A DNA stretch of 64,000 bases from a virus (taxonomy: Duplodnaviria > Heunggongvirae > Uroviricota > Caudoviricetes). Position numbers and translations under genes: made by a program. Numbering within the stretch: the stretch's first letter is position 1; every line of letters begins with the position of its first letter. Shown piece after piece: positions 4,964-62,466 of the stretch. The notes under the pieces are model-generated. The model was given only the letters and a program-made list of their open reading frames with translations. It had not been told where the DNA came from and did not search any database. The stretch lies in IMG/VR virus record IMGVR_UViG_2706794668_000011. One strand, written 5' to 3'.

Positions 4964-4988
4964 GATAGGTAAGTGCTTATCTATTAAC
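4964..4988. promoter_or_regulatory. motif B copy (gataggtaagtgcttatctattaac)
   Basis: Member of the recurring TAGGTAAGT dyad family; begins 8 nt after the upstream stop codon. Confidence 0.5.
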
Positions 4989-4990
4989 AT

Positions 4991-5021
4991 GGGCCACTAT
5001 ATTTAGTGGCCCTCTTTATTT
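4991..5021 (+). terminator. rho-independent terminator-like hairpin abutting the nrdA start
   Basis: gggccacta/tagtggccc stem followed by tctttattt; ends 8 nt before nrdA ATG. Confidence 0.6.
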
Positions 5022-5029
5022 GGTGATAC

Positions 5030-7424: not shown

Positions 7425-7450
7425 ACATCAAAAAGCAAAAGGAAAAACAC

Positions 7451-8592
7451 ATGTCATATTCAACGTTCCGTTTGGGTGCTAATGATGCAACCAAAGAGCC
7501 TATGTTCCTCGGACAATNNNNNNNNNNNNNNNNNNNNNNNNNNNNNNNNNNNNNNNNNNNNNNNNNNNNNNNNNNNNNNNNNNNNNNNNNNNNNNNNNNN
7601 NNNNNNNNNNNNNNNNNNNNNNNNNNNNNNNNNNNNNNNNNNNNNNNNNNNNNNNNNNNNNNNNNNNNNNNNNNNNNNNNNNNNNNNNNNNNNNNNNNNN
7701 NNNNNNNNNNNNNNNNNNNNNNNNNNNNNNNNNNNNNNNNNNNNNNNNNNNNNNNNNNNNNNNNNNNNNNNCGTGGGTTGAAACATGGTCTTTCTCTGAG
7801 ACTATCCATAGCCGCAGCTACACCCACATTATTCGTGGCATGGTGGACGATCCGAGCATTGTTTTTGACGGTATTGTTACGGATGAAGAAATCATCAACC
7901 GAGCGATCAGTATCTCTGCTGAATATGACAGGCTTTATGGGATGACCTGCGAGCGCCAGTCGTTAGGCGAGAAGGAATTTGAGCGTCTGTACGTAAATGA
8001 ATATGGCTGGGAGCCATATCCTTTGCACCGTCAGCTTTTCCGCACGTTGGTGTCCATTAATGCGCTTGAGGCGATCCGTTTCTATGTAAGTTTTGCATGT
8101 ACGTTTGCCTTTGGCGAACGGAAGTTGCTTGAGGGTAACACCAAAATTATGCGCTTTATTGCCCGTGATGAAGCTCTGCATTGCGAAGGAACTGAACGCA
8201 TGATCCGCTTCATGCGTACCGGTCGCGAAGGTTTATTGTGGAAAGAGATTGCTGCTGATGAAGAAAACGTCATTTACGACACCATGAAATCAGTCGCCGA
8301 ACAAGAAATGAACTGGGCCGAGTATCTCTTCAAAGACGGTTCGATGATTGGTTTAAACGCGGATATTTTGAAGACCTATGTAAAATACCGCACCAATCTG
8401 GCTATGAATCGTCTTGGCCTGAAGGCTTTATTTCCAGAGGTTACCACCGATCCGCTGGTCTGGATGAACAAGTGGTTGTTAACCGACACACTGCAAATTG
8501 CACCACAAGAGGCAGAGCAAAGCACATATCTGGTAGGTCAGATCGATTCTACCGTGGACAAGGCTTCTCTAAGCCAGTTTGCAGACCTGTGA
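7451..8592 (+). CDS. nrdB: ribonucleoside-diphosphate reductase small subunit, interrupted by an assembly gap
   Basis: N-terminus MSYSTFRLGANDATKEPMFLGQ and post-gap region VETWSFSETIHSRSYTHII match E. coli NrdB as remembered; the two parts are out of frame across the N run, so the gap size is only approximate. Confidence 0.85.
7518..7771. other. assembly gap (254 N)
   Basis: run of N in the sequence. Confidence 0.99.
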
Positions 8593-9541: not shown

Positions 9542-9562
9542 GTAGGTGATTATCTACTAATG
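9542..9562. promoter_or_regulatory. motif B copy (gtaggtgattatctactaatg)
   Basis: Starts 3 nt after the upstream stop codon. Confidence 0.4.
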
Positions 9563-9606
9563 TATATTTGATTTGCGTATAAAACTCTGGAACGACTATT
9601 CTTTTT

Positions 9607-9630
9607 GGTGGCCTATGGCCACCATTTTTT
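9607..9630 (+). terminator. rho-independent terminator
   Basis: ggtggcc/ggccacc stem followed by atttttt. Confidence 0.8.
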
Positions 9631-9706
9631 ATCTATCTGGTCTTGTTTTATCAATGAATGTAAACTCACGTGATAAATAATTGATTACTTATCTTCGTGA
9701 GGTTTT

Positions 9707-14483: not shown

Positions 14484-14511
14484 ATTGCCATACATAAAAT
14501 CAAATGCAAAA

Positions 14512-14531
14512 ATAGGTATTTACTTACCTAT
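14512..14531. promoter_or_regulatory. motif B copy (ataggtatttacttacctat), near-perfect dyad
   Basis: taggta/taccta inverted repeat 12 nt upstream of dam ATG. Confidence 0.5.
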
Positions 14532-15136: not shown

Positions 15137-15167
15137 TTTGTTCTGGCGTCTGTAATTAGCCTGCTTC

Positions 15168-15228
15168 TGTATATATATAAATAACTACATATTAATTATT
15201 AATATACGGAAGCAGGCTGTTTTGTATC
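15168..15228. repeat. long palindromic element, copy 1 (17-bp GC-clamped arms around an AT-rich loop)
   Basis: agcctgcttctgtatat ... atatacggaagcaggct; a near-identical arm sequence occurs at 40904-40959. Confidence 0.7.
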
Positions 15229-15323: not shown

Positions 15324-15554
15324 ATGTCATACCCGACTAATGTCGTTGCGCTCGTAGACAGCGATTTTCTGGCCCAGGCTCGTGAAATGATGAAAGATCG
15401 TGAGCAGGCTTTCAACTTGTACGAGTGGGCAATTAAGTGCTTGCATCTTGGGGAGCATCGCGAACTTGTTGAACAGCTTTTAGGTGAGTTGATCAACGAG
15501 GTGTTTGCCTTGAATGTTCAACTACATGGTCGAGAAAATAATCAATCGAAATGA
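15324..15554 (+). CDS. hypothetical small protein
   Basis: 76 aa from internal ATG preceded by aagga. Confidence 0.4.
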   Translation: MSYPTNVVALVDSDFLAQAREMMKDREQAFNLYEWAIKCLHLGEHRELVEQLLGELINEVFALNVQLHGRENNQSK

Positions 15555-15574
15555 TAGATAAGTACAAACTATTC
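15553..15574. promoter_or_regulatory. motif B variant (gatagataagtacaaactattc)
   Basis: Overlaps the upstream stop codon. Confidence 0.35.
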
Positions 15575-16135: not shown

Positions 16136-16729
16136 ATGACAACGAAGACACCAGCCCGACCGCAAGCAAAAACTCGCAAAAAAGACAAAAACAAAAATTC
16201 TCCCCGCACCAATCCCACAACGCCTGTCGTAGAGTTCAATCCCCAGCTTAAAACCGTGAAAATCTTTAGTGATGGCTCTTGCCTTAAAAATCCGGGTGGC
16301 CCGGGCGGTTACGGTATCGTTCTCCAGTATCGTGGCGAGGAACGCGAGTTCTCAGATGGTTTTCATAGCACCACCAATAACCGCATGGAGATGATGGGGG
16401 CACTTATCGGGCTGGAGCGTTTGAAATATCCATGCAACGTTATTTTGCACTCTGATAGCCAGTATCTGAAAAACGGCATGACACAGTGGATGAAATGGTG
16501 GAAACGCAATGGATGGATGACTTCTGACAAAAAACCGGTAAAGAATGTTGATCTGTGGAAGCGTCTGGATGAGGCCGCAAGTCGACATAATGTTCGCTGG
16601 AAGTGGGTTAAAGGTCACGCCGGGCATCGTGAAAATGAAATATGTGATCGACTCGCGAAGATCGCAGCTTTTTCAGCAGCAGATATGCCTCACAAGAAAG
16701 ATATTGGTTTTGTTTATAACAAACAGTAA
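16136..16729 (+). CDS. rnhA: ribonuclease H (RNase HI type) with basic N-terminal extension
   Basis: Core [18 protein letters not shown]...TNNRME...HSDSQY...KNVDLW...KGHAGH matches E. coli RNase HI; RBS ggag before ATG at 16136. Confidence 0.85.
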
Positions 16730-16746
16730 GTAAGTGTTTACCTATC
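16724..16746. promoter_or_regulatory. motif B variant (cagtaagtaagtgtttacctatc)
   Basis: Contains the rnhA stop codon. Confidence 0.35.
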
Positions 16747-16874
16747 ATTATAAATCATGTATCTTATCGGCGTCAGGATGACAATGTGTCGGTAAGACAC
16801 AGTTCCAGGATGGAACGAGAAAGGCGGCTGGCGATTGCCAGCCGCAACTCTTTATGACACTGGATGGAGTCCAC

Positions 16875-17638: not shown

Positions 17639-17660
17639 ACCAATAACAAAAGGAAAACAC

Positions 17661-18086
17661 ATGTTAGGTTTCTTCAAAAAGAAAACTCGTAAAGCAGTTA
17701 TCGAAGTCAAAAAAATGGAGAACCGTGATGCGGTTGAAGCCACCGTGTGGGGTGGGTACATGATCTCCTATGCCAACGGTACATGCGATGCAAAAGAAAT
17801 TTCCATTCTTGAGAAAACAATTGCAGCTCTGCCTGCATTTTCTCCTTTTGCTGGTGAGATAGCCCAGATGAGCGCCAATATCCGCGCTCAATACGAAGCC
17901 TCACCGCGCCGTGCTAATGCCCAGGCTTTACGTGAGCTGGCGGATGTGGCCGGGACTGATGATGCAGTAGATGTACTTTGTCTGTGCCTTGATATTGCCG
18001 ACCAAGACGGCATTGATGAACCAGAAGAGCAGGCGCTGAAAAAGATCGCCCAGGCGCTTCAGTTGTCACTGGATGCTTATCTCTAA
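17661..18086 (+). CDS. hypothetical protein, possibly TerB-like
   Basis: 141 aa with RBS aaaagg; weak resemblance of helical repeats to TerB-type domains. Confidence 0.45.
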   Translation: MLGFFKKKTRKAVIEVKKMENRDAVEATVWGGYMISYANGTCDAKEISILEKTIAALPAFSPFAGEIAQMSANIRAQYEASPRRANAQALRELADVAGTDDAVDVLCLCLDIADQDGIDEPEEQALKKIAQALQLSLDAYL

Positions 18087-20012: not shown

Positions 20013-21698
20013 ATGAATACAGCCCTTTCCATCATGGGCGATGCCAGCTCAAACACTGCTATCGACTATCGACAGGAAATGAACGTCATCCACGAAATTG
20101 TGGCCGAGTGCGAGAAAGAGATCTCCTTCATGTATCAGGTACACGACTTCGTTTATGGCGATGAACGCCACAACATGATTAATCGCCTGCTTCGACTAAA
20201 CCACCGACCAGATGAAGATCGCTCACGTTTGAATCGAGTCTGGCTGGATAACGTCGATCTGGAATGGGTGAAACAGAATATTTGGGCCGAGTACTGGAGG
20301 AAGGTTACGGATATGACTAACGTTCTGCTGATCATGCCAGCTTCCCGTCGCGACGAGTGGCGTGAGCTATTTATCGAGGGCAAGCAGGAAGTCATCAAAA
20401 CTGACAGAACCGGCTATCAGATGAAGGTTAAAGAGTTCGTTGGTGTACCGGAGTTCAAAGCAGAAACGGTCATACCAACGATGCTTAATTTGCTGAATGA
20501 CAGGCACAAATATCTCTCTGAGCGCGTGTATGGCTTGTTTAAGGCGCTGAGTCCTGCGCACAAGACAAATAAGACAAACGGTTTCAGCGAGCGTCTGATA
20601 ATCGCTGACTGCATTTCTGATTTCTGGCGTGACAGCGTTAGCGTGAACTATCGCAAAGAGGACTACATCGACGATCTGCGTGTCTTGCTTCATTTCTTCG
20701 CGCACAAAGAATTTATTACCATCAACCGCACTGCTGAGGTGCTATCAGCTGCGTATCGGGCAAACGACTGCCAGACCGGTGACTGGATGAACGTCGATGG
20801 AAATCTGATGCGCGTGAAGATGTTCAAGAACGGCAACGTTCACTTTGAAATACATCCTGACGTGGCCTGGAAGTTGAATGAGGTGCTGGCTTACAGTATG
20901 CCTGCTGCAATCCCCGCGCCATGCCGAACTGCGCCAAAAACACGGGCACCAAAGCAGTTCGGGTTAATCCAGAAGACGATCTCCGTGCCGGTTCGCACTG
21001 CGCTTCGTGACGGGCGATTGAGCAAAGACAAAGGCGTATGGTACTTCTCTGATTCAGCTCTCCAGAAGTCGCAGGTGGAAGAGCTTGAGCGCACACTGAG
21101 CTTCATTGGCGGCGTGCAGGAGAAAAAGCACTGGCAGTTCCCGTATGAGATCGGCCATACGCTAAATACGATTGTGGCTACCGGTTTAATACCGGATACA
21201 AAATCACACCAGTTCTACCCTACCCCACGCTTGATTGCTGAGTACGTTGCCAGAGCCACTGAATTGAAGCCTGGTGAGAAGCTGTTGGAGCCTCAAGCCG
21301 GACGTGGGGATCTTCTGGCCTATATTAACGCCGATCTGGAAGATGTTACCTGCATAGAAATCGCACCTCTCTTCGCTGATATCCTGCGTGGAAAAGGGTA
21401 TACGAACACGATTTGCTGCGACTTCATAAAGTGGTCTGAGGACAACGCAGGTTATCAGTTCGACAAAATCGTTATGAACCCGCCGTACTCGCTTGGTCGT
21501 CATAGAGAGCACACGCTGGCTGCGCTGGGGCATCTGAAAGTCGGCGGGCGTCTTGTAGCAGTATTGCCGGGCACTGCGCCAATACTGGACTGGATGACGA
21601 TGGATAATTACGTTTATGCCAGAGGGAAGTCGTTTACCAACGAGTTTGAAGACACAGGGATCACAGTCAGCGTATACGTTTTCAAACGCGTTAAATGA
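20013..21698 (+). CDS. DNA methyltransferase (N6-adenine or N4-cytosine type) with large N-terminal domain of unknown function
   Basis: 561 aa; C-terminal FYPTP, SAM-binding EPQAGRGDLL and catalytic MNPPYS motifs. Confidence 0.7.
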   Translation: MNTALSIMGDASSNTAIDYRQEMNVIHEIVAECEKEISFMYQVHDFVYGDERHNMINRLLRLNHRPDEDRSRLNRVWLDNVDLEWVKQNIWAEYWRKVTDMTNVLLIMPASRRDEWRELFIEGKQEVIKTDRTGYQMKVKEFVGVPEFKAETVIPTMLNLLNDRHKYLSERVYGLFKALSPAHKTNKTNGFSERLIIADCISDFWRDSVSVNYRKEDYIDDLRVLLHFFAHKEFITINRTAEVLSAAYRANDCQTGDWMNVDGNLMRVKMFKNGNVHFEIHPDVAWKLNEVLAYSMPAAIPAPCRTAPKTRAPKQFGLIQKTISVPVRTALRDGRLSKDKGVWYFSDSALQKSQVEELERTLSFIGGVQEKKHWQFPYEIGHTLNTIVATGLIPDTKSHQFYPTPRLIAEYVARATELKPGEKLLEPQAGRGDLLAYINADLEDVTCIEIAPLFADILRGKGYTNTICCDFIKWSEDNAGYQFDKIVMNPPYSLGRHREHTLAALGHLKVGGRLVAVLPGTAPILDWMTMDNYVYARGKSFTNEFEDTGITVSVYVFKRVK

Positions 21699-21719
21699 TA
21701 GGTAAATACTTACTTAATT
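21698..21719. promoter_or_regulatory. motif B copy (ataggtaaatacttacttaatt)
   Basis: Begins at the last base of the methyltransferase stop codon. Confidence 0.45.
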
Positions 21720-30346: not shown

Positions 30347-30471
30347 TAATGTGCAAGTGGTAATTAGTCGACAGTACGACAGCCCCGCCATCCTTACGGG
30401 GTTTTTTGTATTGTAAGTACATACCTATGTCTATAAAATAGAAAAATAACCAAGACACTATGGAGAGTGAT

Positions 30472-30867: not shown

Positions 30868-30876
30868 TCCTCTTTG

Positions 30877-30905: not shown

Positions 30906-30911
30906 TGCCCG

Positions 30912-30931: not shown

Positions 30932-30985
30932 TTATCTGATTTGTGAAAATGCTTTCACTGAAAGCAACTTGATAAGGAAACCATC

Positions 30986-37394: not shown

Positions 37395-37435
37395 AAACCT
37401 CTTTCCTTAGTGCCTTTTGTATGTTATTTGGCTAT

Positions 37436-37462
37436 TATAATAAGTAAGTGATTACTTAGTGG
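37436..37462. promoter_or_regulatory. motif B variant (tataataagtaagtgattacttagtgg) in divergent promoter region
   Basis: taagta/tactta inverted repeat between helicase and ParB-like gene starts. Confidence 0.4.
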
Positions 37463-38157: not shown

Positions 38158-38825
38158 TGACCAAAAAGTTTGAAATCGTATATCGCGACCCGGCAGATCT
38201 TATTCCCTATGAGATGAATGCCAAAAAGCATGATGAACAGCAGATCAGAGATCTGGCCGCAGCCATTAAAAAGCGCGGATTTGACCAGCCAATTACGGTC
38301 GATAAGAACGACGTAATTATTACTGGCCACGGCCGTCGTGAGGCTGCAATTTTTGCTGGACTTGAGCGTGTACCGGTTATTGTTCGCGATGATCTCAGTG
38401 ATGACGAGGTTCGTGCGAAGCGCCTTGAAGATAACCGACTTGCCAGCATTGATTACGATGCAATTAAGCTACAGAAAGAGCTTGAGTCGCTTGTTCTGGA
38501 CGATATCGAGGTTTTCGGCTTCGAAGAGCGTGAGTTGAATGTTCTCGTTGGCAGTATGACAGAAGAAATGGACACCGACTCGCTAGTTATCGATCTTGGC
38601 GAAGAAACTAAACGACAGAAGGATGAACACACCGAGATCAGTCGTGAAGTTGCAGCGGAAGAAGTACGTGTTGTCGACGTATTGGGCTTTAAAACGCTTC
38701 CTGCTGGCTCTGCCATTGTTGTTGGTGATTTGCTTGCCCACATGGAAGAAATGACGGGAGAAAGCGGGGTAGACGCATTTGTGGCATATGCGGAGAAAAT
38801 CTCTTCCGGGGAGATGGCTGCATGA
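38157..38825 (+). CDS. ParB/Srx-fold protein 2 (tandem paralogue)
   Basis: ParB-type motif ITGHGRREAA; RBS aaggag; ATG overlaps upstream stop. Confidence 0.65.
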   Translation: MTKKFEIVYRDPADLIPYEMNAKKHDEQQIRDLAAAIKKRGFDQPITVDKNDVIITGHGRREAAIFAGLERVPVIVRDDLSDDEVRAKRLEDNRLASIDYDAIKLQKELESLVLDDIEVFGFEERELNVLVGSMTEEMDTDSLVIDLGEETKRQKDEHTEISREVAAEEVRVVDVLGFKTLPAGSAIVVGDLLAHMEEMTGESGVDAFVAYAEKISSGEMAA

Positions 38826-39460
38826 GCAAATACATCATCAACGTATCGTTTCAGACACGCGTAAATAAAACCACGCGCACGTTGGAAATCGCTGAGTCGT
38901 TCGGGCTTGGCCTGGACGAAAAAGAGTGGACGCTTTACGACAATCTGGAGCTGGAAGTGAAGCAGGGCGATGTGGTGTACATCACCGGCCAATCCGGTTC
39001 CGGCAAATCCGTTGTGCTGCGCGAGTTGCAACGACAGATGAAGGATGAAGGGCTGTCTGTAGCCTCCATCGATGATTTTACCTTCGATAATGAGGTTAAC
39101 GTCATCGATCAGTTGGGCAAAACGACCAGTGATGCGCTTGGGTTGTTATCTATGGCTGGTCTGAACGATGCATATCTGTTTGTTCGCAAGCCTTCTGAAA
39201 TGTCAGACGGCCAGAAATATCGTCTCAAGATTGCCAAACTGATTGAGTCAGGCGCTAAAGTATGGGCTGCTGACGAGTTCGGCGCTGTTCTAGACCGTGT
39301 AACCGCTCAGGTTGTGGCGTCTAACCTCCAGCGTGCCGCTCGAAAGGTTGGTGCGACGGTAATGGTGGCGACGACTCACGAAGACCTGAAGAACGCGCTG
39401 CGCCCGGATATGCAGATCACCAAGCACTACAAAGAACGCGTGAAGGTGGAATATGCCTGA
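38822..39460 (+). CDS. ABC-type ATPase (nucleotide-binding-domain fold only)
   Basis: 212 aa; Walker A GQSGSGKS, signature-like SDGQKYR, Walker B VWAADEFG, H-loop TTHED; overlaps upstream stop. Confidence 0.6.
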   Translation: MSKYIINVSFQTRVNKTTRTLEIAESFGLGLDEKEWTLYDNLELEVKQGDVVYITGQSGSGKSVVLRELQRQMKDEGLSVASIDDFTFDNEVNVIDQLGKTTSDALGLLSMAGLNDAYLFVRKPSEMSDGQKYRLKIAKLIESGAKVWAADEFGAVLDRVTAQVVASNLQRAARKVGATVMVATTHEDLKNALRPDMQITKHYKERVKVEYA

Positions 39461-39707
39461 TTTGAAGATCGTAGAGCTGAAGCCATCGAAAGAGACTGAT
39501 AACAACAACGTGGAAGTCATCCGCCTGCTGGAAGAAGCACTTCAGCACGCCAGAGAAGGAAAAAGCCAGAGCCTGGCGCTGTTGATGATCAACAACGACG
39601 GCAGTGTTCTTGATTGCTGGCATAACGGCGGGCGCCCGTATGTCATGGTAGGGGCGATGGAGTCTCTTCGCCTGGATTTCATCAATGCCAATATCGAGCG
39701 CAGGTGA
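39453..39707 (+). CDS. hypothetical small protein
   Basis: 84-aa ORF overlapping upstream stop. Confidence 0.45.
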   Translation: MPDLKIVELKPSKETDNNNVEVIRLLEEALQHAREGKSQSLALLMINNDGSVLDCWHNGGRPYVMVGAMESLRLDFINANIERR

Positions 39708-39712
39708 TCGAC

Positions 39713-40603
39713 ATGGCAGATATCATCATCAAACGCTACCGCCCTGAAGAGTTTCCGCGTCATCTGGACTTTCTGGAGCGAATGACTGTCACAAAGGGAA
39801 CTGTAGAGGACTGGCACGCTCTTAAGTCGCTTCACTACAAAACAGACGGCAAACCTTTCGCGCCAACTTACTATCGCTGCGAACTTGATGACCGTCTGGT
39901 GGGCGTCGTGGTTATGGCTTACCCGAAACTACTGTTGGCACCTCGCCACCGCATGTTTCCTAAGTTGAAACCAACCACTAATACCACCGTAGCTAACCAG
40001 TACTGGGGTCGGTACGTGAATAACAACTTTGCGGTGATCAGTCGCTCAGTTGTGGATACTCAGTATCGTGGCGTAGGCGTCTCTTATCGAATGATTAACC
40101 TGGTTAGCAGGATGCATGACCGGCCAATCATTGAGATCCAGTCCTCGATGAGCAAATACAATCCCTTCGCCATGAAAGCAGGGTTTAAGTTCATCCGCCC
40201 TGAGCGACCGAAGAGCTATGAAAGTGCACTGCGTGTATTCCAGCGCCATTTCCGTTCCGACCCTGGTGATAACGAGGCGATCGTCAAAGAGTTGTTCGCA
40301 ATGAGCGAGTCTCGTCGTCGCCGTGCACTGCGTGATCTGGTGGCGGACTACCACAAGAACAGTTCCCTGGCAAAAGCTGGGCGGAATCGTGGCACGACGA
40401 TTCAGGACATTGCCGACAGTCTGGTGGACGAGGCCAGCATTGTGAAGCTGCTCAAGGACATTCACAACCTGAGCTTTACGTCTCCGTTGTATGGTGTGTA
40501 CCGAAACCCTGACTTTGGTCGTCGACTGCCTGACACGCTGCCACTGCTGGCATTCGACAAACAACCTTTGGATAAACCGTTAGAAATTGCTTTACCGGCA
40601 TAA
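39713..40603 (+). CDS. GNAT-like acyltransferase-fold protein with C-terminal extension
   Basis: 296 aa from ATG after aggtga; QYRGVGVSYRMI resembles the GNAT acyl-CoA-binding motif. Confidence 0.45.
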   Translation: MADIIIKRYRPEEFPRHLDFLERMTVTKGTVEDWHALKSLHYKTDGKPFAPTYYRCELDDRLVGVVVMAYPKLLLAPRHRMFPKLKPTTNTTVANQYWGRYVNNNFAVISRSVVDTQYRGVGVSYRMINLVSRMHDRPIIEIQSSMSKYNPFAMKAGFKFIRPERPKSYESALRVFQRHFRSDPGDNEAIVKELFAMSESRRRRALRDLVADYHKNSSLAKAGRNRGTTIQDIADSLVDEASIVKLLKDIHNLSFTSPLYGVYRNPDFGRRLPDTLPLLAFDKQPLDKPLEIALPA

Positions 40604-40612
40604 GGATTTGCC

Positions 40613-40879
40613 ATGACGTTAACCGACAAACAAAAGGACATCATCAAAACGCTCAATCTCGGTTATGAGCGAGGTCATCTACTTGATCTGGACGAATTGC
40701 TTGAAGTTTTGCCGTACAAGACAACCAAGCAAAGCATCCAGTTCTCAATTCGCGCTCTGATAAAAAAGGGGCTGGTGGAGAAAGGACATACGCGCCAACG
40801 CAGTGACAATCGCTATCACCGCCGGACTCTTGGGTTAACCACTTTAGGTCGAGCCAAAGCGAAGTTACTGGTGATGTAA
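40613..40879 (+). CDS. small winged-helix-like DNA-binding protein
   Basis: 88 aa, RBS aagga; basic C-terminal half; helix-turn-helix character inferred only. Confidence 0.4.
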   Translation: MTLTDKQKDIIKTLNLGYERGHLLDLDELLEVLPYKTTKQSIQFSIRALIKKGLVEKGHTRQRSDNRYHRRTLGLTTLGRAKAKLLVM

Positions 40880-40903
40880 TCGGTCTGGGAGCTTATTTAA
40901 AGA

Positions 40904-40959
40904 CCTGCTTCTGTATATATAAATAATAAGTAACTTATTAAATATATACAGAAGCAGGC
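40904..40959. repeat. long palindromic element, copy 2 (perfect 17-bp arms cctgcttctgtatatat)
   Basis: Perfect inverted repeat around a 22-nt AT-rich loop; same arm sequence as 15168-15228; sits between the wHTH gene and terS. Confidence 0.7.
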
Positions 40960-40993
40960 TTAGTAAGACATGCCCAGACCTAATTAAACACCC

Positions 40994-41708: not shown

Positions 41709-42964
41709 TGGCAATCCCGTCCTCGCTCAGTCTTGTGCAACTGCATTCTGGACAGATGAAAGTCTTCCAGTCTCCGCATCGATTTAAAGTTGTTTGTGCT
41801 GGTCGACGCTGGGGAAAATCCCGGTTGTCGATCTCCACTATTATTCGTGCGGCGGCAAAGGAAAAAAAGCAAAGAGTCTGGTATGTCGCTCCTACTTACC
41901 AGATGGCTCGCCAGATTTTGTGGGACGATCTACAGGAAGTTCTGCCTCGTAAGTGGGTTAGGAAAAAGAACGACACCACGATGACAATCGTGTTGAAGAA
42001 CGGTTCGGAGATCGCCCTCAAAGGTGCTGATAAGCCTGACACTCTGCGCGGCGTAGCGTTGCATTTTGTAGTGCTTGATGAATTTCAGGATATGAAGGCT
42101 GACACCTGGTACAAGGTGTTACGACCTACTCTTTCATCGACACGCGGCGGTGCACTGATCATTGGTACGCCAAAAGGCTTCTCGGAATTTCACAAACTGT
42201 GGACTATAGGCCAGAACGTAGAGCTGCAAAGAAAGGGACAGTGGAAGAGCTGGCAGTTTGTAACTGCCGATTCTCCGTTTGTACCTACGGCGGAAATTGA
42301 AGCTGCTAAGAACGATATGGACCCGAAATCGTTCGCTCAGGAGTACCTGGCGAGCTTTGAGAACATGTCCGGGCGCGTTTACTACCCGTTCGATCGTAAC
42401 GTGCATGTAAAACCGCTTCAGTTCAACCCTCGGTTGCCTATATGGGTAGGGCAGGACTTCAACATTGACCCGATGTCTTCAGTAATTTTGCAACCTCAGC
42501 CAAATGGTGAGCTATGGGCAATTGATGAATTGGTGCTCTTTTCCTCTAACACGGCAGAAGTTTGTGATGAGCTTGAGAGACGCTTCTGGCGCTGGAAATC
42601 ACAGGTAACGGTATTTCCAGATCCGGCAGGTGCTTATCGCCAACATGCTCGTGGGGAGTCTGACGTAGACATATTCAAAGAGAAGGGATTCTTACGTGTC
42701 GATTATTCGAAAAAGCACCCGCCAATTGCGGATCGTGTTAATGCTGTTAACCGAATGCTGATGTCCGCATCTGGAGATATCCGGCTGTATATCGATCCGA
42801 AGTGCAAGCATTTGATTGATTCACTGGAAAAAGTCATCTACAAGCCTGGAACACGAGATATGGATAAGACAGGTGGCATTGAGCATAGTGCAGACGCATT
42901 GGGCTATCCAGTACATCGTAGGTATCCAGTAAAAAATCGTGTTATTCTTGGTGGTTCTCGATAG
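41708..42964 (+). CDS. terminase large subunit
   Basis: 418 aa; Walker A CAGRRWGKS, Walker B VVLDEF, C-terminal nuclease-like acidic motifs. Confidence 0.8.
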   Translation: MAIPSSLSLVQLHSGQMKVFQSPHRFKVVCAGRRWGKSRLSISTIIRAAAKEKKQRVWYVAPTYQMARQILWDDLQEVLPRKWVRKKNDTTMTIVLKNGSEIALKGADKPDTLRGVALHFVVLDEFQDMKADTWYKVLRPTLSSTRGGALIIGTPKGFSEFHKLWTIGQNVELQRKGQWKSWQFVTADSPFVPTAEIEAAKNDMDPKSFAQEYLASFENMSGRVYYPFDRNVHVKPLQFNPRLPIWVGQDFNIDPMSSVILQPQPNGELWAIDELVLFSSNTAEVCDELERRFWRWKSQVTVFPDPAGAYRQHARGESDVDIFKEKGFLRVDYSKKHPPIADRVNAVNRMLMSASGDIRLYIDPKCKHLIDSLEKVIYKPGTRDMDKTGGIEHSADALGYPVHRRYPVKNRVILGGSR

Positions 42965-42982
42965 GTAAGTAATTATCTAAGG
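42961..42982. promoter_or_regulatory. motif B copy (ataggtaagtaattatctaagg)
   Basis: Contains the terL TAG stop. Confidence 0.5.
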
Positions 42983-42990: not shown

Positions 42991-44565
42991 ATGGAATTGA
43001 ACGACAAACAAATTAAGGATCTGGTGGCGCGACGCCACCCGGAATACGAAAAGAAAAAAGAACATTGGGACTTCCTCGCCAGCACTTACGCTGGCGGGCG
43101 TGGTTGGTTTACAGACAATATCTTTCGTTACTTTAAAGAGGGAGATCAGGAGTTTAAGGAGCGAGTTGAACGTGCTTATCGCTTCAACCACACTCGTGAG
43201 GTGGTAAACCTCATCAACAAATATCTCTTTAAAGAAGACATTCATAGAAATATCGAAGAGGCACCAGAGCAGATCCGCAATTTCTGGAAACGTGCGACTC
43301 GCCAGAATGCCTCTATTGACTCATTTATGGCCGCTATTGATTTGCAGTCGTCTATTTACGGTCGCATATGGGTTGTTGTCGATAGCACGATGAGTGGTGA
43401 TGTTGAGTCAGTAGCTGACGAGAAAAAGAAAGATGCTCGCGCCTACGCCTACTGGATTTCACCTCAGCAAATGCTGGATGTGGCATGGGACGACGACGGG
43501 AATATGTTGTGGGCGTTAATTGTGGAAGTCGCTCGTGATGACGCAGATCCTTTTACTTCTACAGGTCAGGAATACCAACGTTATCGTCTGTGGACACAAA
43601 ACGAGTGGTATCTGTTCCGTGAGGAAGTGAAGAAGGGCGCTGGTGGAGCAGGTCGCCGTCAGGCAAAAGTTATTTTAGAGGATAGCGGTGAGCATAATCT
43701 CGGCGTAGTTCCTGTGTTTCCTGTTGATTGTATTGGAGAAAGTGAATCACCGTATTTCAGCCCATCGTTGATCGATGATATCGCTTATCTTGATCGTGCG
43801 GTTGCAAACTATCTGTCAAACCTTGATGCCATTATTCAGGATCAGACATTTAGCCAGTTGGCTATACCGGTACAGTCGCTTTTACCTGGTGATGAAAACC
43901 ACACTAAAGTGCTTGAAATGGGCACAAAGCGAGTCTTCACCTACGATTCTGAAGGTGGAAACCAGCCGTTTTATCTGTCACCAGACCCGAAACAAGCTCA
44001 GATGATCATCACTACGATTAAGACGGTGATTAACGAAATCTACCATTCAGTTGGTGTAGCTGGTGAGCGAACGAAGCAGGACAACGCACAGGGAATCGAT
44101 AATTCATCTGGTGCCGCAAAAATGTATGACTTCCAGCGTGTAAATAGCTTGCTTGTCACAAAAGCAGAGCGTCTGGAAAGGGCTGAACGCCAAATCATGC
44201 TACTGGTTGCGAAATGGATGGGGGTAGATCTGGACGAAGACCACTCTTTAATTGCGTATCCAGAAAGTTTCGATATTCGTGGCCTTACTGATGAATTTTC
44301 TGTTGCCGAGAAACTGTCATTACTTCAGGCACCGGACTCTGTACGTCGTCACCAGATGGAAATGCTTATTGAGAAGATTTTCCCGAACATTACTGAGGCG
44401 ATGAAAAAGGAATTTGATAAAGATCTCTTGAATTTTCCTCCAAAAAATGATCTAAATACCCTTGAAAATAAGTCAGTACTTACTTATGATCGTGGTGCAG
44501 CCCAAGAAAGCGGGCAAGATCAACCCCGAGGGAATGGGGACTCATCTACTCAAGAGAACGAGTGA
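42991..44565 (+). CDS. portal protein
   Basis: 524 aa; position directly after terL and before scaffold and capsid genes. Confidence 0.75.
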   Translation: MELNDKQIKDLVARRHPEYEKKKEHWDFLASTYAGGRGWFTDNIFRYFKEGDQEFKERVERAYRFNHTREVVNLINKYLFKEDIHRNIEEAPEQIRNFWKRATRQNASIDSFMAAIDLQSSIYGRIWVVVDSTMSGDVESVADEKKKDARAYAYWISPQQMLDVAWDDDGNMLWALIVEVARDDADPFTSTGQEYQRYRLWTQNEWYLFREEVKKGAGGAGRRQAKVILEDSGEHNLGVVPVFPVDCIGESESPYFSPSLIDDIAYLDRAVANYLSNLDAIIQDQTFSQLAIPVQSLLPGDENHTKVLEMGTKRVFTYDSEGGNQPFYLSPDPKQAQMIITTIKTVINEIYHSVGVAGERTKQDNAQGIDNSSGAAKMYDFQRVNSLLVTKAERLERAERQIMLLVAKWMGVDLDEDHSLIAYPESFDIRGLTDEFSVAEKLSLLQAPDSVRRHQMEMLIEKIFPNITEAMKKEFDKDLLNFPPKNDLNTLENKSVLTYDRGAAQESGQDQPRGNGDSSTQENE

Positions 44566-46427: not shown

Positions 46428-46450
46428 AATAGGTGTGTAATTACCTATGC
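46428..46450. promoter_or_regulatory. motif B copy (aataggtgtgtaattacctatgc)
   Basis: taggt/accta dyad 8 nt after the capsid stop. Confidence 0.5.
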
Positions 46451-46454: not shown

Positions 46455-46481
46455 GGGTGGGCTATACGCCCACCCTTTTTG
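46455..46481 (+). terminator. rho-independent terminator after capsid gene
   Basis: gggtgggc/gcccaccc stem followed by tttttg. Confidence 0.8.
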
Positions 46482-49053: not shown

Positions 49054-49080
49054 AATAGGTAAGTATATACTTAAATATAG
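49054..49080. promoter_or_regulatory. motif B copy (aataggtaagtatatacttaaatatag)
   Basis: 4 nt after upstream stop, 44 nt before the major tail gene. Confidence 0.5.
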
Positions 49081-55544: not shown

Positions 55545-55570
55545 GGATAAGTAAGTACTAATTTACTATC
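55545..55570. promoter_or_regulatory. motif B variant (ggataagtaagtactaatttactatc)
   Basis: 7 nt after the M-like stop; followed by hairpin 55576-55598. Confidence 0.4.
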
Positions 55571-55620
55571 ATTGTGGCGCTGACAGGATGTCAGCGCCTA
55601 CTTATTTCAAGGATGAAACA

Positions 55621-60700: not shown

Positions 60701-62413
60701 TCGGTTGATGAAAGTGTTGCGGCTGTAGAAGAAATGCGGAGAACGGTTGCTGAGGTAGGAAGAGTAAGTTCAGAAATCACAACTAATCTTGAAGCCATTT
60801 CTAAGACAAATATCGATCTTGCGTTGCGGCAGGACGAAGATCAGCACAGACAGCTGGTAAATAACGCGAAAATTGCCACGACTCAAAAGATTCTTGTCGA
60901 TGATGTGTCAGCAATGGCGTCTAAGGTTGAAGAGATACGAGCCGAGATTGGTGACAACATTCGAGCATCTATTCTCGAAGAAGCGACAGCCAGAACTGAT
61001 GGTGATAATGCGTTAGCCAATCGTGTGACACAATTACAGAGTAAATTTGAAGGTGATATCAGTGCCGCAATAAGGACCGAACAATCTGCAAGAGCATCGG
61101 CCAATGAGACTCTTTCAAAGCAGATCACACAACTGGAGTCTAAAGTAAATACTGATATTTCAACCGCTATTAGAGAAGAGCAACAAACAAGAGCAACGCA
61201 AGATGAAGCATTATCAAGGCAAATAACTCAACTTCAAACAAAAGTTAATAACGATATATCTGCTGCTATTAAAAGTGAGCAACAAGCGCGAGTTAGCGGC
61301 GATTCAGCGTTATCCACACAAATTAATCAATTGCAGGCAAAAGTAGATGATGACATATCAGCTGCTATTAATGAGGAAAGAGAAGCCAGAGCATCAGGCG
61401 ATAGTGCACTATCAAGAGAAGTTAGTAGTTTAAAAACAAAAACAGGTAAAGACATTGCAGCGGCGGTAGCAGTTGAAACCAAAGCAAGAACTGACGCTAA
61501 CGATGCATTATCCAGACAAATTTCTTCTCTTACTACGAGGGCTAATAATCTTCAGTCCTCGATAGAGCGAGAATCGACATCTCGTACAAGTCAGGATTCT
61601 GCCATTGCAAAAGACTTGGCAAGTTTTAAAACAAAAACTGCTAAGGATATAAGTGCAGCTGTTGCGGTTGAAACTCAAGCAAGAGCTGCCGCTGATACCG
61701 CATTGACGTCGCAGATTAACTCACTAAAGACACAAACAGGTAAAGATATAAAGGCTGCTGTAGCAGAAGAGACGAAAGCCAGAACTGATGCTGATGCAGC
61801 GCTTTCGACAAGGGTAACTAATCTCCAGTCGCAAACAACAAATTATATCAATGCAGCGATTACGTCAGAGTCAAAGGCCAGAACAAGTGCAGACAACGCT
61901 CTAGGAAAACGAATTGATACACTGAAAGCGTCTGTAGATGGAAATGTTGCCGTTATTCAGCAGCAGGCTTCTGCTATAGCTGACGCTAATAGAAAAGTAT
62001 CAACCTCGTACACATTGAAGATGGAAACTTCAACGAGTGGTGGGCAGAAGTATGTAGCGGGCATTGCGCTGGGTATTGATACAACGGGGCTTTCTCAGTT
62101 TTTGGTGCGGGCAGATCGATTTGGTTTGGTCAACAATGTTAATGGGAAGATCACAACGCCATTTGTTATCGAAAACAGCGTTGCGTATATGAACGGTGCT
62201 TATATCAAAGATGGCACTATCACAAACGCAAAGGTAGGTGACTTACAATCAACAAACTTCGTAAGAGGACGAGCCGGATGGAGATTTGGCAAAAACGGAA
62301 CGCTTGAGATTAACGGTAACAGTGGAGGAAATGGGAGATTAGTTATCAATGGGCAGAGAATCGACGTTTACGACGACAATAATGTACTCAGGGTAAGAAT
62401 TGGTCGACTTTGA
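57707..62413 (+). CDS. central tail fibre / host-specificity protein, lambda gpJ-like, with C-terminal coiled-coil repeat extension
   Basis: ~1568 aa; position after I-like gene; FN3-like middle region; ~10 periodic ~29-aa repeats (DISAAI..EQQAR..D.ALS.QI.QL) encoded at about 60990-61940. Confidence 0.85.
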   Translation: MEQFKKKKLPLLIAGSGGKKSSKSSSRTPVEADDTVNSRAMASILDLLGEGVIGGLVNGARSIFVDDLPIVNEDGSSNFSGISWDFRDGSQDQTPMSGFDFVETPKSINIQLKKSHYVTVSIDNDEADRVRVIMKFPSLRRIDQKTGDTNGTTVEYKFQISNGDSTFVDVVAEGEKNVGIKLTAKKTGAYYRSYELKLPKPGRAYSVRVVRITDDNSGQYLYNDTWVDSIGEIVDTPMNYPNSALVGLKVNSEQFGGSMPSRSYLVRGLKIRVPSNYNEASNTYDGVWDGSFKLLSSSNPAWILFDLLTNSRYGLGQYVSESMIDLGQLYQIGRYCDEEVDDGFGGKEKRFAINTQITSRQDAYRLIQDIAGAFRGMVFWAGGMVNIMQDSPSDPVMMFTNSNVKDGLFTYKGSARKDRPSVALVTYNNKEDGYKQNIEYVEDQDAMRRYGERKTEVVAFGCTSRGQAHRVGLWLLYTARMESDVITFTAGLDASFLMPGETVLIQNKYRAGKRNSGRIVEFTKNSITLDAPVSLAKSGSFIRILNQEGKIVERDVLETGENITKVTFSKALSSAETPVLNGVWTITEPDLEPMRVRIVNIAQGETSGSFDITAVENNPSKYEAIDNGATLIPQNTTVLDPTYSKPSNLQITEGTYLSSPGNLSVKLTATWEGKSPEYWISWRRSDENNVSNWQSARVTEEQYEIVNVAENGRYDFQLYAVSFNGKKTEIISTVYQVLGTMTPPDAPTSLTAVGDYRNVILNWVNPDSVDLDHINVYASQTNNLDTAKLIAESASTTFTHSGLGDSETWYYWVRSANKRGMLSRPNSNLGTEATTRDVLSFLANKITSSELGQALNEEIDSKASQQAVDEINNHIDQSVESLEGEISALNKELTSSIDEFKTSFTERSETLENAQSELRTEVSSTREKVDDALRQVENSNAALIELRNTVSKQGDSVAGVVEAANAALENASSLIAEERKVRAQADLANAKKIETMRSSVDESVAAVEEMRRTVAEVGRVSSEITTNLEAISKTNIDLALRQDEDQHRQLVNNAKIATTQKILVDDVSAMASKVEEIRAEIGDNIRASILEEATARTDGDNALANRVTQLQSKFEGDISAAIRTEQSARASANETLSKQITQLESKVNTDISTAIREEQQTRATQDEALSRQITQLQTKVNNDISAAIKSEQQARVSGDSALSTQINQLQAKVDDDISAAINEEREARASGDSALSREVSSLKTKTGKDIAAAVAVETKARTDANDALSRQISSLTTRANNLQSSIERESTSRTSQDSAIAKDLASFKTKTAKDISAAVAVETQARAAADTALTSQINSLKTQTGKDIKAAVAEETKARTDADAALSTRVTNLQSQTTNYINAAITSESKARTSADNALGKRIDTLKASVDGNVAVIQQQASAIADANRKVSTSYTLKMETSTSGGQKYVAGIALGIDTTGLSQFLVRADRFGLVNNVNGKITTPFVIENSVAYMNGAYIKDGTITNAKVGDLQSTNFVRGRAGWRFGKNGTLEINGNSGGNGRLVINGQRIDVYDDNNVLRVRIGRL

Positions 62414-62442
62414 TTATGGAAAAAAATATTTTTATCGATAAT

Positions 62443-62466
62443 AATAGGTAGTTACATACTTAATGG
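62443..62466. promoter_or_regulatory. motif B copy (aataggtagttacatacttaatgg)
   Basis: Between J-like stop and Stf-like start; followed by hairpin 62465-62485. Confidence 0.45.

Follow-up and report, generated by a model that had tools for sequence, protein, structure and literature searches.

Scattered between the genes of the phage genome studied here is a recurring palindrome of 20-26 bp, motif B (consensus ATGATAGGTAAGTACTTACCTATCAT). The window, that is, the whole stretch of 64,000 nucleotides that was analyzed, is from an E. coli SSU5-like phage-plasmid. It holds about 15 copies of motif B, and 25-33 copies are found per genome. The motif is symmetric, enriched, intergenic and deeply conserved, and its arms are not under selection for base pairing. 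Our leading interpretation, to which we give about an even chance, is that the copies are dispersed operators of the CYRAN_45-family lysogeny repressor and that they keep the lytic genes silent; in it, both the protein that binds and the sign of its effect are inferred.

The conserved information of motif B is concentrated in the core GGTAAGTACTTACC. A search of the window with the pattern TARGTA-N6-TAYYTA, allowing at most one mismatch, returned 28 strand-matches corresponding to 15 loci, against 0.94 expected, and none of 100 shuffles reached as high a count. With a 26-column weight matrix, 21 matches above 15 bits were found, compared with 0.2 in Markov-2 simulations. An earlier note, made from the sequence alone, had listed 12 copies of a recurring intercistronic inverted repeat. 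All 12 were recovered at the same positions, and the description itself was borne out, with 15 loci where about one was expected and nearly all of them between genes. Three further good copies were found beyond that list (9673-9692, 30409-30428 and 44468-44487), and the copy at 9542 proved to be a variant shortened by 4 bp (GTAGGTGATTATCTAC). Matrix matches at 15170 and 40916 were set aside as parts of another element, a palindrome some 55-60 bp long. The copies and their neighboring features are as follows, in window coordinates; motif B, being a palindrome, is entered without a strand.

4962-4990: promoter-like TTGATA-17-TAACAT, whose spacer holds the motif B copy at 4965..4984
4965..4984: motif B (ATAGGTAAGTGCTTATCTAT) at the RuvC-like/nrdA junction, 8 nt past the stop; kept in Cyrano and SSU5
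4991..5012, plus strand: terminator-like hairpin, 3 nt past the 26-bp form of the copy at 4965
9542..9561: short variant of motif B (GTAGGTGATTATCTAC, arms 4 bp closer), 17.4 bits; just past the stop of the MazG-like gene
9673..9692: motif B, additional copy, 25.0 bits; 14 nt 5' of the thyX start and downstream of a terminator at 9606-9624
14485-14513: promoter-like TTGCCA-17-AAAAAT, which would put the motif B copy at 14512..14531 over +1
14512..14531: motif B (ATAGGTATTTACTTACCTAT), 11 nt 5' of the start of a methyltransferase gene
15554..15573: motif B, 19.6 bits; overlaps the stop of a small ORF
16726..16745: motif B, overlapping the stop of the RNase H gene
21698..21717: motif B, overlapping the stop of the DUF4942 gene and followed by a conserved TGTAAGAAT (-10-like)
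30409..30428: motif B, weaker additional copy, 16.3 bits; in the accessory-gene region
37434..37439, minus strand: perfect TATAAT (-10) of the helicase operon, abutting motif B; read from the sequence
37440..37459: motif B, in the 82 bp that separate the divergent UvsW-like helicase (minus strand) and ParB-like (plus strand) operons
42961..42980: motif B, sharing bases with the terL stop (TAG) and including the Shine-Dalgarno sequence of the portal gene (TAAGG)
44462-44490: TTGAAA-17-TATGAT, whose spacer holds the motif B copy at 44468..44487
44468..44487: motif B, additional copy, 27.7 bits; inside the 3' end of the portal ORF
46429..46448: motif B, past the Ig-like-domain gene (itself after the major capsid gene), with an intrinsic terminator directly next
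49055..49074: motif B, at the junction of the tail-completion and major tail genes
55547..55566: motif B, past the minor tail protein M gene; a terminator follows
62444..62463: motif B, past the J-like tail gene; a GC hairpin follows
46455-46471 and 55576-55598: terminator-like hairpins after motif B copies, similar to that at 4991

All copies in the window except that at 44468 fall outside long ORFs, and they are present in early and late modules alike. Most copies were said to start within 0-10 nt of the upstream stop codon; in 10 of the 15 the core starts no more than 12 nt before or 8 nt after such a stop, and others abut the next start instead. The gap from core to start codon is 10-17 nt at 9673, 14512, 37440 and 42961. 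Incorporation of stop codons into the motif was confirmed at terL (TAG) and at the RNase H gene, and the best explanation for this overlap is that an AT-rich site containing TAG/TAA has been fitted into very short gaps between genes. GC-rich hairpins, said to follow about half of the copies, lie within 1-5 nt at 4991, 46455 and 55576, but those at 9606 and 16824 are farther off; by reading of the sequence, another begins around 62464.

Promoter-like matches coincide with seven of the 15 loci. Copies lie in the spacer of good sigma-70 matches at 4962 and 44462 in the window and at 57443 in Cyrano (TTGAAA-17-TATCAT, read from the sequence). Including these three, overlap of the motif with the -35 to +1 region of a promoter predicted from sequence is clear at 4962, 14485, 44462, Cyrano 57443 and the helicase promoter. 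The copy at 30409 has promoter-like matches on both strands (30411-30439) and orthologues at 96683 in Cyrano and 93162 in SSU5. Several copies in the structural operon, located after stops, before terminators or on a Shine-Dalgarno sequence, have no recognizable promoter. No -10 element was found at a fixed distance downstream of the motif, nor any conserved element outside the palindrome. The strand of the best matrix match is roughly even, being minus for 12 of 29 sites in Cyrano and 15 of 29 in SSU5, and motif B has neither a directional feature nor a bias toward gene direction.

A search of relatives for the motif, as the earlier note had proposed, found copies kept at orthologous junctions, clearly so in Cyrano, SSU5 and Klebsiella pJN2-26, whose whole genomes have 29, 29 and 33 matrix matches, respectively. 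The 26-mer at 44468 is identical in Cyrano and SSU5. Related palindromes with the core RGTAAR-NN-YTTACY occur about 28 times in distant relatives from Acinetobacter (terL 59% identical; 27-29 sites) and Aeromonas (terL 53% identical; 28 sites against 0.9 expected). The helicase/ParB-like junction also bears a copy in Acinetobacter (87801) and Aeromonas (8784), as does the terL/portal junction in Acinetobacter (80469). The core has been kept across clades whose proteins share only 35-60% identity, and these comparisons of sequence indicate that it is held by purifying selection at orthologous junctions across genera.

It is the sequence of motif B, not its ability to pair, that is conserved. 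Complementarity between the arms of single copies did not exceed column-shuffle expectation in any of three clades (z = -1.46, -0.95 and -1.06), and many mismatches between the arms within copies are transversions. Mismatches of the G·U type numbered 25, 12 and 13 in the sense orientation and 20, 11 and 32 in the antisense orientation, the last pair being from Aeromonas. No Rfam 15 family matched anywhere in the window at the gathering threshold. The identity of motif B as an intrinsic terminator or RNase site was not supported: pairing is not maintained by covariation and the G·U mismatches are not confined to the transcribed strand.

The candidate reader of these sites is CYRAN_45, a 128-aa XRE-type helix-turn-helix protein whose gene lies beside the integrase gene, outside the window. 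The authors of PMC9928086 regard it as the master repressor, and its transcript level in LF82 lysogens is 10 times background (PMC9928086). Members of the family are encoded by 865 PLSDB plasmids, with enterobacterial genus counts nearly equal to those of terL; the closest relatives of the window carry such a gene, and homologues are found in Acinetobacter (38% identity) and Aeromonas (31%). The CYRAN_45 promoter, TTTACA-16-TAATAT, is followed directly by C-R-R-TAAG-Y-ACTTACC, which places the motif core over the predicted +1. This arrangement is kept in E. coli, Klebsiella, Yersinia pMT, S. Typhi pHCM2 and Cronobacter. At this promoter the copy consists of the 14-bp core only and has a low matrix score (10 bits in Cyrano, 17.7 in Klebsiella). 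In Aeromonas, a motif copy lies 56 nt upstream of the CYRAN_45 homologue, and in Acinetobacter at least two degenerate copies (matrix matches at 35357 and 35413) are upstream of it, with a third discerned by eye. The putative assignment to CYRAN_45 draws on this co-occurrence in three independent clades, for which a chance probability of a few per cent was estimated. Against it, the core of the motif is more stable than is usual for an immunity operator; among the clades that share it, the repressors have only 31-56% identity. SSU5 retains all of the sites yet lacks the integrase-repressor segment, which would be compatible with recent loss of the repressor but also with a different binding protein.

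In the scheme that we propose, motif B would be an operator with two-fold symmetry that a dimeric regulator of the phage recognizes in double-stranded DNA, with some 25-33 operators spread across the lytic modules, early and late, of SSU5-type phage-plasmids. As long as the phage persists as a plasmid (lysogeny), dimers of the repressor would sit on palindromes located in the spacer/-35 region or over the +1 of sigma-70-type promoters heading lytic units, or merely in short gaps. A bound dimer would keep transcription from starting, and perhaps from reading through, as at the C1 operators of P1 or the stoperators of mycobacteriophages; at those copies of the structural operon that have no recognizable promoter, we can only infer such a roadblock role. 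The repressor would regulate its own gene through the copy that covers the start site of that gene's promoter, and loss of repressor activity upon DNA damage would free all units at once.

Expression was assessed in public RNA-seq data from lysogens, which have very low lytic read counts. There, genes behind the promoter matches at 4962, 14485, 44462 and Cyrano 57443 are at the detection floor and the ParB-like genes are at background, while transcription of the helicase operon in LF82 lysogens reaches 5-12 times background. In all, three site-adjacent promoters are active in lysogens, those before CYRAN_34, before CYRAN_81 (the Cyrano orthologue of the copy at 15554, site 78474, lies 5' to this gene) and of the helicase operon. 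Occupancy of a site, judged from these three, does not therefore simply mean "off". In the macrophage-6h sample, a site marks the beginning of several of the most-induced units (genes 56-57, 60-62 and 12-13). Induction was stronger for the first gene downstream of a site than for other genes (median 2.76 vs 1.92 log2, one-sided p = 0.02), and the transcript level rose by 2.5 log2 across the Cyrano orthologue of site 49055. The expression-step signal at sites was gone after control for the size of the intergenic gap (p = 0.17).

Among other readings, the one that fares best, although we consider it fairly unlikely, is that a phage protein of the lytic phase reads the sites as a global activator or organizer, or uses them as loading sites of the KorB/Noc/ParB type. 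The rival binders would be a MarR-like winged-helix protein or a ParB-like pair and the ABC-type ATPases of its operon:

37477-38157 (ParB1) and 38157-38825 (ParB2), plus strand: ParB_N-domain pair (Pfam PF02195), the first genes after the motif B copy at 37440
40613..40879, plus strand: 88-aa winged-helix protein just upstream of terS; phrog_900; conserved in three clades

The winged-helix protein and both ParB_N proteins are kept in the three clades in one operon upstream of the terminase genes, with a motif copy directly 5' of ParB1 in each. The AlphaFold2 model of the winged-helix protein (pLDDT 81; TM 0.67-0.77 to MarR-like folds) predicts with confidence a dimer-type DNA-binding fold, and by inspection the segment that putatively forms its recognition helix is well kept from E. 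coli to Acinetobacter; the homologues in Acinetobacter and Aeromonas are weak. The ParB-like proteins have PDB sequence matches to Spo0J and Noc. A small RHH-like protein at 35554-35832 is a further conserved DNA-binding candidate. The presence of sites in SSU5, which lacks the XRE repressor, also favors a lytic reader. Palindromes scattered without regard to promoter distance are typical of KorB OB, ParB parS and Noc sites; motif B resembles KorB OB (RK2), ParB-parS and Noc systems in this respect, in the presence of ParB-family genes and in having one site directly 5' of the ParB-like operon. In contrast to those systems, ParB-like genes stay silent here while the phage is a plasmid and their products lack a recognizable helix-turn-helix; they have GGEHR/GHGR motifs rather than the GERRxR CTP-binding motif, and the sites are unlike parS or OB. 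By inspection, ParB1 has no clear helix-turn-helix and its region aligned to Spo0J is acidic; its structure model was unusable (pLDDT 37). Since the winged-helix and ParB-like genes are at background in lysogens, their products cannot explain the silence of good site-bearing sigma-70 promoters. In addition, an activator needs a fixed position relative to the -10 element, and none was found, while the core at +1 of the repressor promoter and the copies in promoter spacers occupy repressive positions. The more specific proposal, that the palindromes are loading or recognition sites for a KorB/Noc/ParB-SMC-like lytic module composed of two ParB/Srx-fold proteins, two ABC-type ATPases and the winged-helix protein, we regard as unlikely. 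If true, such a module would mark, compact or insulate a genome of about 100 kb at about 30 points during lytic growth, and could couple transcription-unit boundaries to genome organization or packaging.

It is similarly improbable that motif B is itself a promoter, either a sigma-70 promoter that is symmetric, perhaps bidirectional, and directs transcription outward from its -10-like arms (TATCAT/TATAAT), or an activator-dependent promoter of the P1 late type, with an inverted repeat centered near -20 plus a -10 element. Both arms alike score as -10 hexamers (12 of 24 downstream vs 10 of 24 upstream in Cyrano), and perfect TATAAT arms occur in Acinetobacter. Also in keeping with a promoter are the TATAAT abutting the palindrome at the lysogen-active helicase operon, the promoter-like matches at seven of 15 loci, and the rise of transcript level across some sites. 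The late promoters of P1 contain a 9-bp inverted repeat bound by Lpa (PMC10695390). As in those, motif B can be viewed as an inverted repeat just upstream of or overlapping a -10-like hexamer, its center falling at about -19.5 to -22.5 if one arm is taken as the -10; it differs in not being late-only, in having -10-like hexamers on both arms and in the many copies too near to start codons. With an arm as the -10, the transcript would at many sites begin at a distance of 0-10 nt from the start codon, or past the Shine-Dalgarno sequence; these sites include 42961 and 14512 in the window and about 10 in Aeromonas with d = 3-13, although the genes there have normal Shine-Dalgarno sequences. Moreover, the spacer of ATGATA-N14-TATCAT is too short for sigma-70, the conserved core GGTAAGTACTTACC is not a sigma-70 element, the sites show no bias for gene direction, and early and late modules both carry them. 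The suggestion that motif B is a late or middle promoter or activator site thus survives in part: it behaves as a symmetric, promoter-associated, predicted protein-binding DNA site linked to regulation, but a repressor is the more probable reader than an activator.

A function at the RNA level, as a processing or stabilizing hairpin, a termination aid or a three-frame stop that insulates cistrons, is very unlikely. The motif often has a stop codon on one side and a terminator on the other, a stem of 8-9 bp could form from the palindrome, and at many junctions the motif is transcribed, because the Shine-Dalgarno sequence of the next gene overlaps or follows it. As an RNA processing site, a role put forward in the earlier note, motif B is disfavored by the lack of covariation between arms within copies in any clade, the absence of a sense-strand G·U preference (reversed in Aeromonas, 13 vs 32) and the lack of an Rfam match; the distance to start codons is also variable. 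The intercistronic RNase III sites of T7 are likewise recurring inverted repeats on polycistronic transcripts, but these are RNA stems of about 20 bp conserved as structures, whereas motif B shows no pairing covariation or strand bias. The proposed three-frame stop was not upheld either. Stops in all three frames were present in six of 17 scored matrix matches on the plus strand, compared with 3.5% of AT-rich control 26-mers; most copies lack them and the consensus is open in one frame per strand. Least probable of all is a non-regulatory repeat, either a recombination linker at module boundaries or a REP/MITE-type selfish palindrome, as might be supposed for a short multicopy intergenic palindrome in phages of a mosaic family: each copy is one 26-bp unit that no repeat structure flanks, the points where similarity between the window and Cyrano breaks off do not fall at the copies, and these occupy orthologous junctions across genera, with the core under purifying selection even where proteins are 35-60% identical.

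For operators of a CYRAN_45-type repressor, the closest analogues would be the C1 operators of P1 and the stoperators of mycobacteriophages. In P1, a single repressor, C1, acts on operators dispersed over the plasmid-prophage genome, including sites at its own gene, and the operators overlap sigma-70 promoters. The likeness is that both are phage-plasmids in which one repressor (here a candidate) would control many lytic units through tens of dispersed sites, and that the motif B core is found at the candidate repressor's own promoter in five enteric genera. Unlike motif B, a palindrome of 20-26 bp with a 128-aa XRE-type candidate reader, the P1 operators are asymmetric 17-mers bound by the unrelated C1. 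The late operons of P1 are controlled indirectly via Lpa (for an outline of P1 regulation, see PMC10695390), whereas motif B is also found within the structural operon. Motif B resembles the stoperators in its copy number (stoperators: about 25-35 per genome), in its placement in very short gaps, often on stop or start codons, in early and late regions, and in its independence of promoters. The stoperators of L5 and other Cluster A phages, the sites of the gp71 repressor, are 13 bp, asymmetric and fixed in orientation relative to transcription; motif B, in contrast, is symmetric and has no orientation bias, and the proteins are not homologous.

SSU5-type phage-plasmids include S. Typhi pHCM2, Y. 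pestis pMT1 and many resistance-carrying plasmids of Klebsiella and E. coli, and a terL homologue is present in more than 1000 PLSDB records. In the searchable literature, we found nothing on the control of lysis and lysogeny in this group. A palindrome of about 20 bp at 25-33 putative regulatory points per genome, together with a named candidate repressor, amounts to a testable map of the circuit. If the operator interpretation is true, the design of one repressor with many dispersed operators, as in P1 and the Cluster A mycobacteriophages, would extend to a third, unrelated lineage, in this case with a symmetric site whose core is conserved from the Enterobacteriaceae to Acinetobacter and Aeromonas.

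The window represents an SSU5-like phage-plasmid of E. coli, with 98.9% identity to Escherichia phage CMS-2020a (CP054387.1), 95% to Cyrano (pLF82) and about 80% to Salmonella phage SSU5. Collinearity with Cyrano 63.8-108.4 kb followed by 0-22.9 kb defines its gene content as recombination and nucleotide-metabolism genes, an accessory region, a UvsW-like helicase, a ParB-like operon, terminase, and head and tail genes. A run of 254 N, either an assembly gap or a masked stretch, occupies 7518-7771 downstream of the nrdA ORF, where the corresponding part of Cyrano carries nrdA/nrdB.

All 12 copies of the intercistronic motif B reported in the earlier note were found at their positions, and a 26-column weight matrix built from them converged on the palindrome ATGATAGGTAAGTACTTACCTATCAT. 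Matches scoring above 15 bits numbered 21 in the window versus 0.2 in Markov-2 simulated sequence, and a search for TARGTA-N6-TAYYTA with at most one mismatch gave 28 strand-matches, representing 15 loci, versus 0.94 expected from a shuffle control. Additional good copies lie at 9673, 30409 and 44468, and the copy at 9542 is a variant that is 4 bp shorter. Matrix matches at 15170 and 40916 were assigned to a separate family of ~55-60-bp palindromes and not to motif B. With the exception of copy 44468, which sits within the 3' end of the portal ORF, all copies are outside long ORFs. In 10 of the 15 copies the core starts within a span from 12 nt ahead of the upstream stop codon to 8 nt past it, others adjoin the next start codon instead, and terminator-like GC hairpins are found 1-5 nt past several copies. 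The idea that the motif generally supplies stops in all three frames did not hold, as only 6 of the 17 copies scored have all-frame stops and one frame of the consensus has no stop; the stop codon overlap seems incidental to a TAG/TAA-rich site lying in very short gaps.

The longer palindromes, RCCTGCTTCTG-TATATA-(AT-rich)-TATATAC-AGAAGCAGGY, number three per genome.

15158-15218, window: long palindrome
40903-40961, window: long palindrome
~31150-31215, Cyrano: long palindrome

One follows the parA operon and another the methyltransferase gene; the last lies between terS and the gene for the 88-aa winged-helix protein, at the point where the Cyrano and SSU5 records start. Candidate roles are dispersed centromere-like sites (as in N15), bidirectional termination, or a link to packaging. 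A second palindrome, (A)GAAAACAA-N-TTGTTTT(C), usually lies 20-40 nt upstream of start codons, and an extended ribosome-binding context, AAAGGAAAAACACATG, is common to many early genes.

7409, 17625, 18354, 23091, 27029, 27080, 30012, 30914, 31679, 40997, 41024: second palindrome
7441-7453, 17651-17663: ribosome-binding context, window
33525, 46749, 59096, 63322, 70361, 84673, 85895: ribosome-binding context, Cyrano

The GAAAACAA palindrome clusters among the accessory genes, where few motif B copies occur, and also precedes terS. It is probably the "motif A" of the earlier note, and may be an operator for a second regulator. Downstream of the RNase H gene is a conserved block (~16780-16850) with apparently compensatory differences from SSU5 (GTGTC..GACAC/GTACC..GGTAC), after which there is a strong bidirectional terminator (16824-16845). 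This block could be a structured RNA; it gave zero Rfam matches.

The matrix matched 29 sites in the whole genome of Cyrano, 29 in that of SSU5 and 33 in that of Klebsiella phage pJN2-26, with the junctions shared between genomes. In orthologous intergenic alignments the conserved blocks are motif B, terminators and ribosome-binding sites, and orthologous copies of the motif vary at single positions while keeping their fit to the consensus. The family is a large one: terL has homologues in over 1000 PLSDB plasmids, among them lineages from Acinetobacter (59% identity) and Aeromonas (53%). The Acinetobacter plasmid pCMCVTAb1-Ab59 carries 27-29 copies of ATTATTAGTAAGCGCTTACTAATAAT, the motif from which its commonest 8-10-mers derive, and an Aeromonas jandaei plasmid (55% G+C) carries 28 copies of ATCAGTAAAYAYTTACTGAT versus 0.9 expected. 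The core common to enteric, Acinetobacter and Aeromonas sites is RGTAAR-NN-YTTACY. The earlier note had held that a lack of motif conservation at orthologous junctions would count against it; such junctions are clearly occupied across clades, with terL/portal, tape-measure/M and helicase/ParB carrying sites even in distant ones. Mosaic breakpoints between the window and Cyrano did not track motif B sites. Full-text searches of the searchable literature, using the motif sequences and promoters or palindromes of SSU5, pHCM2 and pMT1, found no description of the motif. Motif B is real, strongly non-random and deeply conserved.

A hairpin in the + strand RNA was suspected first, since C-to-T changes in the right arm would give G·U pairs, but this signal was gone, and the hairpin rejected, once both mismatch classes were counted and columns were shuffled in the three clades. 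The + strand mismatches in Cyrano and SSU5 were 59 G·U-type, 54 A·C-type and 137 other, so that the G·U type was not commoner than the A·C type. Site sets from Cyrano, Acinetobacter and Aeromonas were oriented by gene and their right-arm letters dealt among copies; complementary arm positions per copy were not above the shuffle (z = -1.46, -0.95 and -1.06, respectively), and sense/antisense G·U counts were 25/20, 12/11 and 13/32. Rfam returned zero family matches in the window. Together, the arm-pairing and mismatch tests indicate that the palindrome arises from each half separately fitting one half-site consensus. Such independent fit, as read from the sequences, is the expected signature of a two-fold symmetric protein on duplex DNA and not of selection for pairing. 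Motif B is very probably a symmetric DNA site to which a protein is predicted to bind.

No conserved element was found outside the 26 bp. An activator site with a fixed downstream -10, like those for P1 Lpa or T4 MotA, was rejected when offset scans in Cyrano, Acinetobacter and Aeromonas gave no directional enrichment, and no -10 at a fixed distance farther downstream was found in any of the three clades. Elements resembling TGTAAGAAT lie after some copies in the early region, and the outer arms of the motif themselves resemble -10 elements (TATCAT; TATAAT in Acinetobacter), equally on both sides (12 vs 10 of 24 in Cyrano). If an arm served as the -10, predicted starts at many sites would fall 0-10 nt from the start codon, bypassing evident Shine-Dalgarno sequences: that of portal is inside copy 42961, an ATG lies 11 nt past copy 14512, and about ten Aeromonas sites have d = 3-13. 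The symmetric arms, the lack of a fixed -10 and starts too near the ATG argue that motif B is neither a self-sufficient promoter nor a fixed-geometry activator site. Several copies are instead placed within or beside promoter-like sequences.

4962: TTGATA-17-TAACAT, motif B in the 17-bp spacer
44462: TTGAAA-17-TATGAT, motif B in the 17-bp spacer
Cyrano 57443: TTGAAA-17-TATCAT, motif B in the 17-bp spacer
14485: TTGCCA-17-AAAAAT, motif B over +1
Into the helicase operon: perfect TATAAT, adjoining motif B

These predicted placements, in the spacer, over +1 and adjoining the -10, are typical operator positions.

Expression was assessed from the RNA-seq table for LF82, the host of Cyrano (PMC9928086). 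In lysogens nearly all site-adjoining genes are at the detection floor, including those behind the 10/12-match promoters listed above; three site-adjoining promoters are active. In the macrophage-6h sample, CYRAN_46, which is divergent from the repressor gene, rises about 90-fold, and several of the most induced units begin at a motif B site, with steps of +3.6 log2 across Cyrano site 57443 (genes 56-57), +3.65 log2 across site 59396 (genes 60-62) and +2.5 log2 across site 9015 (genes 12-13). Transcript level drops past site-plus-terminator junctions. The first genes past a site have a median induction of 2.76 log2 versus 1.92 for other genes (p = 0.02). Junctions with a site show larger expression steps than junctions overall (p = 0.003), but not larger than those with a gap of at least 40 nt (p = 0.17). 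This expression evidence is suggestive only.

A reader of the site should be common to the three clades, and a three-way comparison leaves few DNA-binding candidates.

Outside the window: CYRAN_45, a 128-aa XRE-type repressor
37477-38157 and 38157-38825, + strand: two ParB_N proteins, ParB1 and ParB2
40613-40879, + strand: 88-aa protein upstream of terS, confident MarR-like winged-helix model
35554-35832, - strand: 92-aa protein after the UvsW-like helicase gene

CYRAN_45 is the master repressor in the view of the LF82 authors (PMC9928086), and its transcript is 10 times background in LF82 lysogens, in which the ParB-like and winged-helix genes are silent. Homologues are found in Acinetobacter (38% identity) and Aeromonas (31%). 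The gene is present in 865 PLSDB plasmids, with enterobacterial genus counts that nearly match those of terL, and is also carried by the closest relatives of the window. At the CYRAN_45-family promoter, TTTACA-16-TAATAT is followed directly by C-R-R-TAAG-Y-ACTTACC, so that the motif core covers the predicted start site; this block was seen in E. coli, Klebsiella, Y. pestis pMT, S. Typhi pHCM2 and Cronobacter. In Aeromonas a full motif copy lies 56 nt upstream of the repressor homologue, and in Acinetobacter the upstream region has at least two degenerate copies and a third by eye. The decisive lead on the identity of the reader comes from the repressor promoter region. The recognition helix, N-x-x-x-L/V-S-x-I-K-x-G, is fairly conserved in an alignment inspected by eye, which fits the conserved motif core. 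The most economical reading would be an autoregulated repressor whose operator recurs at lytic units. Motif B would most likely, although at roughly even chances, serve the XRE-type lysogeny repressor of this phage-plasmid family as its dispersed operator.

Several observations weigh against assigning the sites to the repressor. SSU5 keeps its motif B sites but is without the integrase-repressor segment, which equally allows another reader. This segment of ~3.7 kb, encoding integrase and XRE repressor, is absent from SSU5 (~42.5-42.8 kb vs Cyrano 39-43 kb) and present in Cyrano, Klebsiella phages and ~865 plasmids; its absence suggests that SSU5, the type phage, is a recently repressor-less lytic isolate or derivative. 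The copy at the repressor promoter is without outer arms, and the core is stable while repressors diverge to 31-56% identity, a pattern uncommon among immunity systems. For many copies in the structural operon no promoter is visible; if functional, they would, by analogy with stoperators, serve as roadblocks or insulators.

Sites of the KorB/ParB type are a live minority alternative, favored by the ParB-like operon that adjoins a motif B copy. The operon (37477-40879), directly upstream of the terminase genes, is conserved in the three clades and silent in lysogens. It encodes two ParB/Srx-fold proteins (GGEHR, GHGR motifs), an ABC-type ATPase, the ATPase-like phrog_886 and the 88-aa winged-helix protein; ParB1 starts 17 nt past a motif B copy, without an obvious Shine-Dalgarno. 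The AlphaFold2 model of ParB1 (pLDDT 37) was unusable, and the RHH-like beta-alpha-alpha pattern at its C terminus offers no more than a hint. Homology searches with ParB1 and the 88-aa protein found close SSU5-family relatives only, and Pfam and NCBIfam gave only sub-threshold matches for the small candidate proteins (RHH_4, PadR, Sta1/Lrs14). The 92-aa protein is expressed at 12 times background in LF82 lysogens. Its counterparts in Acinetobacter and Aeromonas are syntenic and 97-99 aa long; the protein is ribbon-helix-helix-like by eye, with a sub-threshold Pfam match to RHH_4 only.

An FljA-like regulator (34261-34782, - strand) is an unlikely reader, having no Acinetobacter homologue and only a marginal Aeromonas match. 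It matches Pfam Flag1_repress (PF03614, E = 1e-68) over its full length; FljA, which represses phase-1 flagellin, belongs to this family. The protein is also found in Cyrano, SSU5 and Klebsiella pJN2-26, and may be a moron acting on host flagellin expression. A phage sigma factor was rejected as reader, with no tblastn homologue in Cyrano or SSU5; a sigma-70-family gene is located at 30780-31445 of the Acinetobacter plasmid NZ_CP016299.1, between a CobS-like ATPase gene and dnaE.

P1, itself a phage-plasmid, has dispersed C1 operators that work in a similar way, and the stoperators of mycobacteriophage L5 are similar in copy number and in their intergenic, stop/start-overlapping placement. Unlike both, motif B is symmetric and its candidate protein is unrelated; it lacks the asymmetry and orientation that define stoperators. 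The likeness to P1 late promoters, which consist of an inverted repeat plus a -10 (PMC10695390), is superficial. As a dispersed operator, motif B would be a new variation on a known regulatory design, a repressor with dispersed operators, and through it the lysis-lysogeny circuit, so far unstudied in this clinically widespread family of phage-plasmids, becomes directly testable.
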